Source of the DNA: Candidatus Hodarchaeota archaeon
Lineage (GTDB): Archaea > Asgardarchaeota > Lokiarchaeia > Sigyniarchaeales > SOKP01
NCBI GenBank assembly: GCA_048886685.1
Contig: JBHLKM010000002.1
Location: forward strand, 231,532 to 295,531
Length of the DNA: 64,000 bases
Reading direction: 5' to 3'
Of the stretch, positions 7,681 through 14,097 are shown one piece after another. Below the pieces are notes generated by a model. That model made no database searches. It saw only the letters and a program-made list of their open reading frames with translations, and was not told the origin of the DNA. Each line of letters starts with the position of its first letter. Within the stretch, counting starts at the first letter, position 1. A program made the position numbers and the translations under genes.

Positions 7681-9624
7681 ATGAATAATAAAGAAAATCA
7701 TCGGATTGGATACTATGCTTGTCAATGAGGTGTAAATATAAGAACTAAGGTAGATTGCGATGAATTAACTAATTATGTTAAGAGTCTTGGAGATGAAATT
7801 ATAATTTCGAAGAAAAACCCATTTCTATGAACTGATAATGCTCAAAATGAAATTATAGAGGACATCAAAGAAAAGAATTTAAATAGAATTGTAGCGTCCG
7901 CTTGAACTCCGCGTACACATGAGGTGATTTATAGAGGTACTATTGCTAAAACGGATTTAAATCCTTATTATTTTCAAATGGTAAATGTTCGGGAACATTG
8001 TTCTTGGTGTACAGATACTAAAGAAGAAGCTACAGAAAAGGCAAAAGTTTTAGTAAAAAGTGGCATTGAAAGAGCCAAGCGATTGGAACCTGTTCCTATT
8101 AAAACTGTTCCCGTCACTAAAGCCACTTTAGTTGTTGGAGGTGGGATAGGAGGTATGAATGCAGCTCTAGATTTAGCGAACCAAGGTATTAAAGTTTACT
8201 TAGTCGATATTAAAACAACAATCGGAGGAAGAATGGCTCAATTGGACAGAACCTTTCCAACAGACGACTGTGCGATATGAATCTGCGGTCCAAAAATGCT
8301 TGAAGTTAATAGAAATGAGAATATAGAATTATTAACATATTCTGAAGTAAAAAAAATTGAAGGATACGTTGGTAATTATAAGGTAACTATTGAGAAGAAA
8401 CCACGATACACAACTGATGAATGTAATGGTTGTGGTGCTTGCGCTGAAGTCTGTCCAGTTTATACAACGAATTATTTTGATGAGCATCTAGGTGCACGAA
8501 GAGCAATAGATATTCCATTTGGTCAGGCAGTCCCGTTTCTATATGATATTGATCGAAATGCATGTGTTGAGTGTTTTTCATGTGTAGACGCTTGTGAATT
8601 GGATGCTATTGATTTTAGCCAGGAACCTACAGAACTTAATGTTGAGGTTGGTACAATCATTATAGCGACTGGTTGGGATATACATGAACCTTTTGGCGAA
8701 TACGGATATGGAGAATTCGAAAATGTGATTACTCAAGCTCAACTAGAACGAATTTTAGCTCCAAACGGACCACTTGAAGGCCACGTACATCGAATTTCGG
8801 ATAATAAGAAACCTAAGGAAATTGTTTTCATTCAATGTGTCGGTAGTAGAGAAGAGGATAGGACTTACTGCAGCGGAGTGTGTTGCATGCTTGCTTTAAA
8901 GAATGGACGATTGCTTTTAGAAGAATTTCCTGATGCAAACATTACAATCTGTTATATTGACATAAGAACTCCTGAAAAAGGATTTGAAGAATACTATGAA
9001 CGAGCTAAAGATGCTGGTATTAGATTGATACGAGGGAAAGTAGGTGAAATTTCTGAAGATCCAGAAACAAAGAACGTGAAAGTTCGAGTATATTCAACAT
9101 TAACAGATAAAATTGTAAAAATTGATGCTGATTTAGTTGTGTTATCCACAGCAGCAATCCCTTCAAAAGGTACTCAACAGATTGTAGAACTTTTAAATCT
9201 TGATACTAATACTTATGGCTTTCTAACAGAATCACATTTCGGATTAATGCCCCAAGAAACTAAGTCAAAAGGCATTTTTATAGCTGGATTTGCTCAAGGA
9301 CCGAAAAATATTTCTTATTCCGTTTCTCAAGCTAGAGCCGCTGCTAGTAAAGTAGCGGAATTAACATCACCTGGAGAAATAGATATTGAACTAATTACTG
9401 CTGAAGTTGATAGCGATTTTTGTATCTCCTGTCGACGATGCGAAAAAGAATGCCCTAAAAATGCCATCAAGATTGAAGAAGACATCGGAGCGTTCATTGA
9501 TGAGATAAATTGCGATGGATGCGGTATCTGTGCTACATGCTGTCCTACTCAGGCAATTGATATAAGGTATTATCGAGATCATCAATTATTTGCAGAAATT
9601 GATGGAATTTTAGGAGGTGGTTAA
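7681..9624 (+). CDS. hdrA: Selenocysteine-containing heterodisulfide reductase subunit A (647 aa, 4 Sec)
   Basis: One frame from ATG 7681 to TAA 9624 with in-frame TGA at 7726 (ACQ*GVNI), 7828 (FL*TD), 7903 (SA*TPRTHE) and 8278 (DDCAI*ICGPKM). These match CHCGINI, YSCSS, ASCTPRTHE and DCSLCILAPKM in the paralogs. The call joins ORF-track fragments 7924-8280 and 8296-9624. Confidence 0.93.
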
Positions 9625-9627
9625 ACA

Positions 9628-10101
9628 ATGGACAACTATAATTATAAAATTGTTGCTTTTGCTTGTTTAAAATGAGGTTATAGCGCAGCGGATTTAGCAG
9701 GTGTTTCACGAATGAAATACCCTTCTTCCATAAAAATAATTAAAGTTCGTTGTACAGGAAGAGTAGATTTGAAACATATACTTTATAGCATTAAATCTGG
9801 GGCGGATGGTGTAATGCTTGCTGGTTGAAGACCCAGTGAATGCCAGTATAAAAACGGTAATTTCACGGCTAATAAACATGTCGAATTCGCAAATAGAATT
9901 TTAGAATCTAGAGGCTTCGGAAATCAAAGAATTAACATGTATTGGTTAAGTGGAGCAGAGTCAGAAAAATTTGTAAGAAGTGTAGAAGATGCTTTAGAAA
10001 AGGTAAAATCTGTTGGACCAAGCCCAATTAATTTAGTAAAACAAGAAGCAGAAATAGAAGCTAAAGAAACAAAACAAGCTATAACTACCCCTGCAGAATG
10101 A
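9628..10101 (+). CDS. mvhD: Selenocysteine-containing hydrogenase delta subunit MvhD/VhuD (157 aa, 2 Sec)
   Basis: MDNYNYKIVAFACLK*GYSAADLAGVSRMKYP...VRCTGRVD...GADGVMLAG*RPSECQY. TGA 9673 and 9826 align to the Cys of CNWC and GCH in the paralogs. GGAGGTG RBS upstream. Entirely missing from the ORF track. Confidence 0.93.
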
Positions 10102-10146
10102 ATCTTATAAAAAACTTTAGTTATAGGATGACTTACCTTGCGAGGG
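10088..10146 (+). ncRNA. Eukaryote-type SECIS element (cis-acting mRNA structure)
   Basis: AUGA (10098-10101), 9-bp stem AUCUUAUAA/UUAUAGGAU, loop AAAACUUUAG, then GA (10130-10131); lower stem CCCUGCAG/UUGCG-A-GGG. Confidence 0.85.
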
Positions 10147-10217
10147 AAGGGGTCTTAAAATAGTATTCAATTAAAATAAAAAATTTGTTAAATGGAAAAA
10201 TCCAAAAGGATGAGAAT

Positions 10218-11714
10218 ATGGTTCAAATTTCAAATAATGTATCTTTCAATGGAATATCCCCAAAAAATCTAATGGATGCAACATATAAAGCCATTAAAAA
10301 TTTTCAAATTCGAGCGTTCTTCGAAGCTAAAGATGAAATTTTAGAAATAGGTAAATATTCTGAAGAAGAATTTTATAAAATATTAGATGCCATGATAGAT
10401 GCTGAAACAGAGCGTAAATTAGTACTGGAGTCTTTAAGGGGTAAGGAACCGTTATTTTTAGAGGAAATTGCAAAAATTCTAAAAGACTTTCCGGCAGAAC
10501 ATGTAATTCGTGATATAATTTACCTAAAAGAACAGGGATATATTGAAGAACATATTGAAATAAAAACTAAAATAGTTATCAAGAAAATAAAGGGAGAAGA
10601 AAAAGAAGTCGAGGAACAAGAATATTTCTACAGATATCAAGTAAAAGATATACCCGAGGATTTCATTGAACATTTTTTTGAACCTGTCTCTATTGTCTTC
10701 GATTCTGAAGTATGCTGTCAATGTGGTTGGTGTTCATCTATTTGTCCTGTAAATGCCATTACAGTCACAGCAGATACTTTAGAGATCGATGATGAGACTT
10801 GTATGAAATGTGGGATCTGTTATTCTGTTTGCCCGAGATCATTTTCAATTGAACAAGCGGGTAAAAGCATAAATAAGCTTGATAAATCTTTAAAATTCTC
10901 AGAAAAAATTAATGGTTATATTAATACCTATTCTGCCTCCACCACTAAAAATGAAATTAAAAAAGTTCGACAAGATGGGGGAATTGTTACTTCTTTACTT
11001 GAATACTTACTCAAGAATAAATTAGTTGATGCAATTATAGCTGTAAAACATTCAAAGGACCTATGGAAACCAGAGCCAGTAATAGTAGAAGATGTTAAAG
11101 ATTTATACAAAACAAGTGGTACTAAATACGCTAATGCCTCAACTTTAAATATCATTGATGAAACGAAAAAGTACGAAAACATAGCAGTCGTAGGAGTTCC
11201 TTGTATGATGAATGCATTAAAAAAAGGGTATTTATTTCCAAGCGGACAACCTTTTTTCAAAAACATTAGCTATAGAATAGGGCTTTTCTGCATGGAATCT
11301 TTTCCCTATGAAGGAGTGCTTAAATTAATTAAAGATCAATTTGATAAAGATTTTAATAAAGTTACTAAAATGGATATAAGTGGGGGTAAATTTATTATAT
11401 ATTTAGATTCGGGTGAGGATTTAAGAGTACCCTTAAACGATGTTAAATCCTATGCACGCCATAATTGTCATTTTTGTGAGGATTTGACTGCCGATTATGC
11501 TGATATTTCTGTAGGATCGATTGGGTCTCCTAGTGGTTGGTCTACAGTAATTACGCGAAATGAAAAAGGTGATAAAATCTATAAAGACGCAATTAAAGCA
11601 GGATTAATTGAATCTAAAAGCTTAAAGGAGGTAAAACCAGGACAACCCTTATTAGAAAGGATTGCTGGTACAAAAAGAAAAAATTGTAAACCCATTAAAT
11701 TGGGACAAGAATAA
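10218..11714 (+). CDS. FrhB-family F420-binding subunit with N-terminal winged-HTH-like domain and 2x[4Fe-4S]
   Basis: CCQCGWCSSICP, CMKCGICYSVCP, QDGGIVT, SGTKY, VGVPC, IGLFCMESF, CHFCEDLTADYADISVGSIGS. ATG 10218 is preferred to TTG 10185. Confidence 0.85.
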   Translation: MVQISNNVSFNGISPKNLMDATYKAIKNFQIRAFFEAKDEILEIGKYSEEEFYKILDAMIDAETERKLVLESLRGKEPLFLEEIAKILKDFPAEHVIRDIIYLKEQGYIEEHIEIKTKIVIKKIKGEEKEVEEQEYFYRYQVKDIPEDFIEHFFEPVSIVFDSEVCCQCGWCSSICPVNAITVTADTLEIDDETCMKCGICYSVCPRSFSIEQAGKSINKLDKSLKFSEKINGYINTYSASTTKNEIKKVRQDGGIVTSLLEYLLKNKLVDAIIAVKHSKDLWKPEPVIVEDVKDLYKTSGTKYANASTLNIIDETKKYENIAVVGVPCMMNALKKGYLFPSGQPFFKNISYRIGLFCMESFPYEGVLKLIKDQFDKDFNKVTKMDISGGKFIIYLDSGEDLRVPLNDVKSYARHNCHFCEDLTADYADISVGSIGSPSGWSTVITRNEKGDKIYKDAIKAGLIESKSLKEVKPGQPLLERIAGTKRKNCKPIKLGQE

Positions 11715-11732
11715 TAATAACAAAGAATTATT

Positions 11733-12833
11733 ATGAGTGTAAAATCTTTTCAAAATTTAATAAAAGAAGTTCATGAGAAAGGAATTTGTCAAGAATGCGG
11801 AGGTTGCGTAAGTTTTTGTAGTTCGGTTGATTATAATGTTATAGGATTTAAAGAACCTTACTCACCTCCAGAATATATTAATAAAGATGCGTGTCTTGAA
11901 TGTGGTATTTGTTATTATCTATGTCCTCAAACTCACATATTAGACGATGAACTTAATAAAACTTATAAATTTATAGATTTTAAATCAATGCCACTTGGTT
12001 ATTTCGAAGACATATATTCTTGCCAATCCACTGATCCTGATTTTCTAAAATATGGAACTGATGGTGGAGTAGTGAATTCAATAATTAATTATATGTTAGA
12101 AAAGAAATTAATTGATGGAGCAATAGTTGCTAAAATTCAGGGTCCTTTTTCAAAAGAAGCTATGTTTGCTGGTGATAAAAAAGATTTAATTAAAGGTTCT
12201 GGGACAAAACTTGAAATATCGACACAGTTAGATGAGATACAGAATTTTTGTACGTATACTCGCTCCATCCCAGAATTAAACCGTTACAAATTTAAAAAAT
12301 TAGCAATAGTAGGGACGCCCTGTCAAATTTATACCATCAGGTGTATGCAAAATTTAGGGGTTACTCCTTCAGAATATATAGAAATATGTTTAGGATTATT
12401 TTGTTATCATAATTTCCTTTTTGATAAAGCTCAAATAGAAAAATTTGAAAAAGACTTTGATGTAAAATTTGAAGATATCACAAAAATAAACATTAAGGAA
12501 GATCTTATTTTAAAAATTGGCACAGATGGGAGAGTAGTACATATTCCCTTCGATAAAATAGTAGATTATGTACGTCCCGCTTGCTTTAGTTGTGCTGATT
12601 TCACCAATGTGTATTCAGACATTTCTTTTGGAGGACTTGGATCTCCAGATAAGTATACTACAGTAATTCCCCGTACTGAAAAAGGACGTAAATTATTTCA
12701 TAAAGTTCTGGATGATCAACTTATCAAAAAATTAGTACTTGATGCTCCTGAAAAAAGTAAAATGAAAGAACGAATAACAAAATTCTCTCATTCGAAAATG
12801 GAGAGGGAACTAAGTTTTGTAAAAAATTTATAG
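11733..12833 (+). CDS. FrhB-family F420 hydrogenase/dehydrogenase beta subunit
   Basis: CQECGGCVSFC, CLECGICYYLCP, TDGGVV, VGTPCQ, LGLFC, CFSCADFTNVYSDISFGGLGS. Confidence 0.85.
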   Translation: MSVKSFQNLIKEVHEKGICQECGGCVSFCSSVDYNVIGFKEPYSPPEYINKDACLECGICYYLCPQTHILDDELNKTYKFIDFKSMPLGYFEDIYSCQSTDPDFLKYGTDGGVVNSIINYMLEKKLIDGAIVAKIQGPFSKEAMFAGDKKDLIKGSGTKLEISTQLDEIQNFCTYTRSIPELNRYKFKKLAIVGTPCQIYTIRCMQNLGVTPSEYIEICLGLFCYHNFLFDKAQIEKFEKDFDVKFEDITKINIKEDLILKIGTDGRVVHIPFDKIVDYVRPACFSCADFTNVYSDISFGGLGSPDKYTTVIPRTEKGRKLFHKVLDDQLIKKLVLDAPEKSKMKERITKFSHSKMERELSFVKNL

Positions 12834-12840
12834 TAAGGGT

Positions 12841-14097
12841 GTGAGATATCTGACCGAGTTGAAACAACCCAGTAAAAGTGATCAAGAAACTGATGAAATT
12901 CAAGTTTTTTTAGATAAAATATATGAAACTGATTTAAGACATTTATTGAAAAAATGTTATCAATGCGCACGATGCTCAGGTGTATGTCAAATTAGTAAGG
13001 TTCAGAAATTTACACCTAGTAGGATCATCCAAATGATTTTGGAGGGATTTGAAGACGAAATAATTGATAATGGAGTATTATGGGAATGTTTGACCTGTAA
13101 TAGTTGTCTCCAAGACTGTCCTAAAAATATAAATTTTGCAGATATTGCTCGGATTCTAAGATATAAAATGAGAAATAAGGGTATTCATAACCTTGAGAGA
13201 GCGGTTGCTCATAAAGGAATTTATCCTACAATGGGTGAATTGATGAGTCAAGATTATATTAATATCAATCGTCCTTTAGATTGGATCCCTAAAGGTTGTA
13301 AGATTGCAGATAAAGGTGAAATCTTATATTACGTTGGATGTTTGCCATTTTTCGATTATGATTTTCAGAATCTCAAGCCTATCTCATCAAGTACTTTAAA
13401 AACTATATGTAAAATTGAAAATGAACCAATTGTCGTACTTAAAGAAGAGACTTGTTGTGGACATGATTTATATTGGGGGCAAGGAAAATTTGAAGTTTTT
13501 ATTGAGTTAGCTAAGAAAAATCGAGAAAAATTTGAAAAAGCAGGCATATCAACAATAATTACTGCTTGTGCGGAATGCTACAGAACATTCAAGGTTGATT
13601 ATGCGAATTTATTTGATGATTTCAATAAAAGGTTTGATGTTCAACATATTATTGAATATGTATATGATAAGTGGAAACAAGGGAAGATCGATTTTAAAAA
13701 ACCTAATGAAAAATATAAGAAAACCACTTTTACGTTTCACGATCCCTGTAGATTAAGTAGATTTTTACCAACAGAAAACAACCTGGTAAAGAATTTAAGA
13801 GAAATTTTTAATTATCTACAGAATTTGGGGTATAATTTTAAAGAAATGAAACATAATCAAGAAAATTCCCTATGCTGCGGAGTTAGTTCTTGGTTAAATT
13901 GTAATGAGCGCTCTAAAGCATTGCGATACACCCGAATCTTAGAGGCAAAAGAGGTTGCTACTCAAGTATATACATCTTGTCCTAAATGTAACGTTCATTT
14001 GAATTGTATTAAAAAAGATTATGAGGATATTTCTTCGGTAGAAATTTCAGATCTTTCAGAATTTCTCGCAGATATAATAAAAATTGTAAAAAGTTAG
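12841..14097 (+). CDS. HdrD/GlpC-like Fe-S oxidoreductase (4Fe-4S dicluster plus two CCG domains)
   Basis: CYQCARCSGVC, CLTCNSCLQDCP, ETCCG, TACAEC, FHDPCRLSR, LCCG, TSCPKC. Confidence 0.85.
   Translation: MRYLTELKQPSKSDQETDEIQVFLDKIYETDLRHLLKKCYQCARCSGVCQISKVQKFTPSRIIQMILEGFEDEIIDNGVLWECLTCNSCLQDCPKNINFADIARILRYKMRNKGIHNLERAVAHKGIYPTMGELMSQDYININRPLDWIPKGCKIADKGEILYYVGCLPFFDYDFQNLKPISSSTLKTICKIENEPIVVLKEETCCGHDLYWGQGKFEVFIELAKKNREKFEKAGISTIITACAECYRTFKVDYANLFDDFNKRFDVQHIIEYVYDKWKQGKIDFKKPNEKYKKTTFTFHDPCRLSRFLPTENNLVKNLREIFNYLQNLGYNFKEMKHNQENSLCCGVSSWLNCNERSKALRYTRILEAKEVATQVYTSCPKCNVHLNCIKKDYEDISSVEISDLSEFLADIIKIVKS

Follow-up and report, generated by a model that had tools for sequence, protein, structure and literature searches.

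It is very probable that a single lokiSECIS element located after hdrA-vhuD in a Loki-type Asgard genome is shared by the two genes, that the UGA within the core of this element terminates vhuD, and that the overlap of stop codon and core is a tolerated by-product of the arrangement. The SECIS, the overlap of AUGA with the stop codon and the reason why this UGA still acts as a stop are already known, having been published in 2016 (PMC4989117) and restated in 2024 (PMC11227280), as far as the accessible text of these papers goes. The locus adds one more clean example, from an Asgard genome that has been newly assembled, and is ordinary for its lineage, with nothing new in principle.

The hdrA-vhuD locus and its host

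The window, which is the whole stretch of 64,000 nucleotides (64 kb) analysed here, belongs to a Promethearchaeia (Loki-type Asgard) MAG of 4.4 Mb with a G+C content of 31%. The host genome encodes tRNA-Sec, SepSecS (482.8 bits, above the curated cut-off) and a SelB-like factor (237 bits, just under the cut-off), and the three genes are clustered within 7 kb on contig C1. Because these components of the Sec machinery are encoded, a Sec reading of in-frame UGAs is reasonable in this organism. Two genes precede the element:

7681..9624 (+), hdrA, 647 codons with a UAA stop (translation; Pfam Fer4/Pyr_redox_2 matches)
9628..10101 (+), vhuD/mvhD (FlpD family), 157 codons (translation; Pfam PF02662, E = 1e-43)

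Translation of hdrA reveals four in-frame UGA (Sec) codons, at 7726, 7828, 7903 and 8278 (codons 16, 50, 75 and 200). The gene has no SECIS of its own, is separated from vhuD by a gap of 3 nt and lies approximately 480 nt upstream of the SECIS element. The vhuD frame contains two Sec codons at 9673-9675 and 9826-9828 (codons 16 and 67), and the first in-frame stop is the UGA of codon 158 at 10099-10101; the same three in-frame UGAs are present in vhuD orthologues. The six Sec UGAs of hdrA and vhuD thus lie upstream of the SECIS element at distances of 272 to 2372 nt. If 10099-10101 were read through, the protein would be extended by U-I-L up to the TAA at 10108-10110, and the translation agrees in this respect with a first-pass annotation of the same DNA. 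In three sequencing runs of a single study, which may be the source sample, Logan DNA contigs match positions 9600-10200 and show the element and the UGAs unchanged.

Two FrhB-like genes and an HdrB/C-like CCG-domain gene (Pfam) follow on the 3' side of the SECIS, at 10185-14097 of the window. If these genes are co-transcribed with hdrA-vhuD, the SECIS would be situated mid-way in a longer operon.

Structure of the SECIS element

The element consists of two main helices, a kink-turn core and a small additional hairpin, which are arranged as follows:

10087..10153 (+), whole lokiSECIS, type I (Asgard eukaryote-like), common to hdrA and vhuD, from the covariance model R1 and the aligned elements
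10087..10092 (+), helix I 5' strand ACCCCU, within the last vhuD codons (Thr-Pro), pairs with 10148-10153
10098..10101 (+), AUGA, 5' half of the kink-turn core, of which UGA 10099-10101 is the vhuD stop codon
10102..10110 (+), helix II 5' arm AUCUUAUAA, including an in-frame back-up UAA at 10108-10110
10111..10120 (+), apical loop AAAACUUUAG, 10 nt, with AAAA at the start and AG at the end
10121..10129 (+), helix II 3' arm UUAUAGGAU, pairs with 10102-10110
10130..10131 (+), GA, 3' half of the kink-turn core
10136..10146 (+), small third hairpin CCU-UGCGA-GGG, 10136-10138 with 10144-10146, between the core and helix I on the 3' side
10148..10153 (+), helix I 3' strand AGGGGU, pairs with 10087-10092

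Several features drawn in the first-pass annotation are read directly from the sequence, namely the AUGA (10098-10101) and GA (10130-10131) of the core, the 9-bp upper stem with one G-U pair (10102-10110 with 10121-10129) and the apical loop AAAACUUUAG (10111-10120) that begins with AAAA. Helix II (AUCUUAUAA/UUAUAGGAU) is formed with all nine base pairs, is A-U rich and contains a single C-G pair. By analogy with eukaryotic SECIS elements and k-turns, sheared pairs are predicted between the GA at 10130-10131 and G10100 and A10101. The apical loop is one A shorter here (10 nt) than the 11-nt loop found in 44 of the 46 orthologues. Folding of the single sequence with RNAfold gives a z-score of -0.78 for the element, which is not significant.

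Conservation and covariation

A total of 46 distinct vhuD orthologues were compared, which come from several genera and mostly from one family, so that the counts obtained from these related sequences are not independent. Orthologues and paralogues together form an alignment set of 51 elements. MAFFT misplaced gaps inside the stem when applied to the short core segments, and the pairs in the paralogues were counted by position instead.

Covariation in the vhuD orthologues, which the first-pass annotation had proposed as a check, is clearly present. In the three-helix consensus of the 51 elements, 96% of the cells are paired and 14 of the 18 pairs show compensatory changes; these values are reached in none of 500 shuffles, and slid controls are 45-64% paired. 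In helix I (10087-10092 with 10148-10153), pairing reaches 96.6% and each of the six pairs shows compensatory changes, and helix II is 95.9% paired in the 51 sequences, with compensatory changes in seven of nine pairs. Pairs 3-9 of helix II are additionally 100% canonical across the paralogues of this genome, where up to three pair types occur at one position. The first-pass annotation had instead drawn a lower stem CCCUGCAG/UUGCG-A-GGG, with 10089-10096 opposite 10138-10146, which is only 76-82% paired in the 51 elements. The lower helix was therefore given the wrong partner, since the pairing of 10087-10092 with 10148-10153 is far better maintained and all six of its pairs covary.

The third hairpin (10136-10138 with 10144-10146) is 95% paired in the 51 sequences, and unconstrained folds of six other SECIS elements from the genome show a hairpin of unrelated sequence in the corresponding position. 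These results support a three-helix architecture with a small 3' hairpin. A third hairpin is seen in seven of the seven SECIS elements of the genome, with stems such as ACCC/GGGU, AUAGGA/UCCUAU and AUGG/CCAU.

The AUGA is invariant in all aligned elements (18 orthologues plus paralogues), and the 3' side of the core is GA in 43 of the 46 orthologues and AA in the remaining three. The SECIS is intact in 46/46 orthologues, whichever stop codon is used.

Search for the element in the genome

The distribution of the element in the genome was examined with sequence patterns and with a covariance model. The strict pattern, defined as R-UGA, a perfect 9-bp stem, an A-rich loop with a final G, and then GA or AA, gives five matches on both strands of the 4.4-Mb genome, compared with 0-2 in reversed or locally shuffled controls, and all five are located at the ends of ORFs with an in-frame UGA. 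Scans with a loose pattern (two mismatches allowed, stems of 8-10 bp) return 178 matches, which are mostly noise in a genome of 31% G+C. The candidates at C5:45987 and C18:67412 were judged to be false positives, as both are internal to ordinary ORFs and without a model match.

The covariance model R1, built from 18 orthologous elements, matches the hdrA-vhuD element with 87.7 bits (E about 1e-21), and this is the single significant match in the 64-kb window. Six significant matches are obtained in the whole genome, each at the 3' end of a UGA-containing ORF: the hdrA-vhuD element, the elements of two other Sec-vhuD paralogues and of a stand-alone four-Sec hdrA, and those of two ORFs without a Pfam family. 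R1 misses the SECIS of a further vhuD paralogue on contig C11, which has a bulged U, and a candidate at C7:172092. Bulged-U variants of the C11 type are missed by covariance models built from one orthologue group. In five genomes of other families of the same order, R1 has no match among the best 150 candidates per genome; the model is specific to the orthologue group, and this result has no bearing on the absence of SECIS elements there.

The model search suggested in the first-pass annotation thus succeeds with the orthologue-derived model and is blank with the eukaryotic SECIS models of Rfam. No SECIS family match is found by Rfam cmscan at the gathering score in the 64-kb window, with the eukaryotic SECIS models included, or at E <= 10 in positions 9900-10300, including SECIS_1 (RF00031). 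The blank in Rfam is expected because SECISearch3 also gives nothing significant in Asgard genes, according to the accessible part of PMC11227280.

The vhuD stop codon within the core

The first in-frame stop of vhuD coincides with the core UGA in 41 of the 46 orthologues, a count that overstates the number of independent observations of the overlap. Three other orthologues have a UAG that ends 1 nt before the AUGA, where a 1-nt deletion shifts the frame, and the remaining two have a UAA 16 nt upstream of the AUGA; the latter stops are preceded by runs of A in MAG sequences and may result from assembly indels. The stop codons of four other genes with a SECIS in this genome are placed as follows:

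vhuD paralogue C6 (a), UAA at -12 relative to the AUGA
vhuD paralogue C6 (b), UAG at -4 relative to the AUGA
vhuD paralogue C11, UAA about 20 nt upstream of the AUGA
C2:317895-319996 (-), stand-alone hdrA, 683 codons with four in-frame UGAs and its own lokiSECIS (element at C2:317948(-)), the core UGA being the stop

On the 3' side of the core, the element of the stand-alone hdrA has AA and not GA. The C11 paralogue (C11:123456-124050) is a Sec-vhuD gene, and its SECIS, about 20 nt past the UAA, carries the bulged U in the 3' arm of helix II.

Judging from these sequences, the overlap of stop and core appears to be common in the orthologue group and optional for a working element, because relatives and paralogues stop at a UAG or UAA upstream while their SECIS is intact. 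The stop codons of hdrA orthologues are UAA or UAG in 36 of 36 readable ends, whereas UGA accounts for 89% of the stops in vhuD, compared with 13% genome-wide. This contrast between hdrA and vhuD is as the published proximity model predicts. The conservation of the TTP(A/V)E C-terminus and of the in-frame UAA could reflect a constraint on either the RNA or the peptide.

Proposed mechanism and alternative explanations

A bicistronic hdrA-vhuD message carries the lokiSECIS at its 3' end. Once folded, the element most likely brings in the Sec-specific elongation factor, either directly or via a binding protein. The element would then act at a distance and direct Sec insertion at the six upstream UGAs. 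Since the core AUGA is in frame with vhuD, the core UGA is the first stop that the ribosome meets. Once this UGA occupies the A site, helix I and the 5' arm of helix II would have entered the mRNA channel and the element would be unfolded; a release factor may therefore terminate translation at the core UGA, because an unfolded SECIS could not recode it. Accordingly, a UGA stop would be avoided within reach of SECIS recoding but tolerated at a site where the ribosome has already unfolded the element. The overlap would then be a tolerated by-product of a SECIS packed against the coding end and not a required device, as relatives and paralogues use a UAG or UAA a few nucleotides upstream.

The first-pass annotation had offered the same melting argument, which agrees with the published model and with the UAA or UAG stops of hdrA, and it had identified the UGA at 10099-10101 as the in-frame vhuD terminator. 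Translation and the orthologues confirm that this codon is the first stop, and termination at 10099-10101 is probable on these grounds. Its interpretation is therefore supported, while the observation as it was drawn is partly confirmed.

Alternatively, the core UGA might be decoded, in full or in part, as a third Sec, which would give VhuD a conserved Sec-x-Leu tail ending at the UAA 10108-10110. UGA is probably decoded as Sec elsewhere on the same mRNA in this organism, and a stop occurs 2-3 codons past the UGA in 40 of the 41 orthologues with the overlap, where the final residue of the tail is always Leu or Leu-Lys. However, the tail codons are also the 5' arm of helix II, and RNA pairing suffices to explain their conservation. 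Different residues follow the UGA (F, I, L, V, Y, C or T), and in two cases the change breaks a base pair; read-through would run for 21 residues in one orthologue, and in five of the 46 the tail is missing because the stop lies upstream. Additionally, a ribosome at the core UGA must already have melted the SECIS if the reasoning above is correct, an argument that is also present in the accessible text of PMC4989117. A third Sec codon is consequently regarded as unlikely. A likewise improbable proposal is that the core UGA is a selected dual-use codon, either with termination tuned by SECIS occupancy or selenium status, so that VhuD release is tied to Sec decoding at the six upstream UGAs, or with a third Sec at the C-terminus inserted by some of the ribosomes, and that the conserved third hairpin is part of an undescribed protein-binding platform that replaces SBP2.

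Persistence of the overlap is expected without any selected function, as the frame and the SECIS are both constrained and one frame in three meets the core UGA. This weakens the suggestion that the overlap is an actively selected switch, in which each round of termination resets the SECIS or a factor bound to the SECIS influences termination, such that vhuD termination is coupled to the decoding of the six UGAs. The retention of the overlap in 41/46 orthologues from several genera, although the upstream linker varies in length and sequence, is consistent with such a switch, as is the same arrangement in the stand-alone hdrA of this genome, where it is independent. The overlap has nevertheless been lost at least three times with the SECIS intact, and the other Sec-vhuD paralogues of the genome use a UAA or UAG upstream of the core, which makes a selected switch very improbable. 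Another alternative is that the hairpin is not a SECIS and stands after vhuD by chance; it could be some general structure of mRNA 3' ends, for example a terminator or a k-turn that binds L7Ae and stabilizes the mRNA. K-turns are bound by L7Ae in all archaea, which is a point in favor of this explanation. All significant R1 matches in the 4.4-Mb genome nonetheless coincide with the 3' ends of ORFs that contain in-frame UGAs, the four UGAs of hdrA have no other candidate element, and the A-rich loop together with the AUGA/GA core fits the signature of a SECIS and not that of a generic k-turn. This last explanation is hardly credible, and a shared lokiSECIS with a terminating core UGA is preferred over all of these alternatives.

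Comparison with known SECIS elements

The lokiSECIS was described by Mariotti et al. (2016, Mol Biol Evol, PMC4989117), in the accessible text, as an AUGA, a 9-bp stem, an 11-nt A-rich loop ending in AG, and a GA. The same source reports that one element is common to hdrA-vhuD, with up to six UGAs over about 2 kb, that vhuD stops are frequently UGA whereas those of hdrA are UAA or UAG, and that a minimal distance between SECIS and UGA may account for this (the proximity argument). An AUGA that doubles as a stop codon is described there for VhuU.1, and SBP2 was not detected in the Lokiarchaeota genomes covered. Frequent overlaps of stop and core in Lokiarchaeia are reported in the accessible part of Huang et al. 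(2024, ISME J, PMC11227280).

The present element shares with the lokiSECIS, as presented in PMC4989117, the AUGA before a 9-bp stem, the A-rich loop ending in AG and the GA after the stem, in addition to the single element after vhuD that would serve a multi-Sec hdrA and a two-Sec vhuD and overlaps the coding end. It differs in its loop of 10 nt instead of 11, and the covarying outer helix and the third 3' hairpin are absent from the accessible text of that paper. The AUGA, the 9-bp stem, the loop, the GA, the gene position and the Sec machinery of the host all place the element in lokiSECIS type I, and the statement of the first-pass annotation that it is an eukaryote-like kink-turn SECIS of the Lokiarchaeota type is borne out by these sequence features and by the covariation. 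In comparison with the published overlap in VhuU.1 (PMC4989117, accessible text), the overlap and the proximity argument are the same, whereas the gene here is vhuD (and the stand-alone hdrA) and not vhuU.

A comparison with the eukaryotic SECIS of form 1 (RF00031, an SBP2-binding kink-turn) reveals the same AUGA...GA quartet, unpaired loop adenines, 3' position, predicted action at a distance and minimal-spacing rule. The element differs from this form in its shorter helix II (9 bp), in the lack of an Rfam match and in its location in a polycistronic archaeal mRNA, where it overlaps the coding sequence. The methanogen (euryarchaeal) SECIS occupies the same 3' UTR site in the same gene family, and the Methanococcales vhuD SECIS also contains AUGA...GAC, as stated in the accessible text of PMC4989117. 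The criteria for a methanogen SECIS, as given in the portion of PMC11227280 that is accessible, are a GAA_A internal bulge and three consecutive G-C pairs in a short upper stem. In contrast, the window element has neither the GAA_A bulge nor the run of three G-C pairs, and its A-U rich stem contains a single C-G pair.

The contributions of this analysis are modest and consist of the quantified optional overlap (41/46, with losses), the corrected helix I and the support for three helices. The Loki-type SECIS is the best candidate for the ancestor of the eukaryotic SECIS, and clean conserved examples help to define it. The region of the third hairpin is an internal loop in the accessible text of PMC4989117 and PMC11227280. 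The hairpin may merit addition to SECIS search models, as current pattern searches take this region as an unstructured internal loop.

Other candidate selenoprotein genes

Three ORFs without a Pfam family are associated with SECIS-like elements in this genome. The ORF at C7:172076-173038 (-) comprises 320 codons, of which two are in-frame UGAs, and has a membrane-like segment in its C-terminal part; an AUGA hairpin that follows the lokiSECIS pattern with one mismatch and has no R1 match encompasses the final codons and the UAA of this ORF. At C14:111682-112239 (-), a SECIS scored by R1 at 30 bits is located 8 nt past a 167-codon frame, which contains two adjacent UGAs (HADUUADV). The SECIS at C2:362227-362559 (-), with 45 bits, is located 21 nt past a short ORF that has a hydrophobic N-terminal part and a GGGUVC motif, and this ORF is a candidate for a small membrane selenoprotein.
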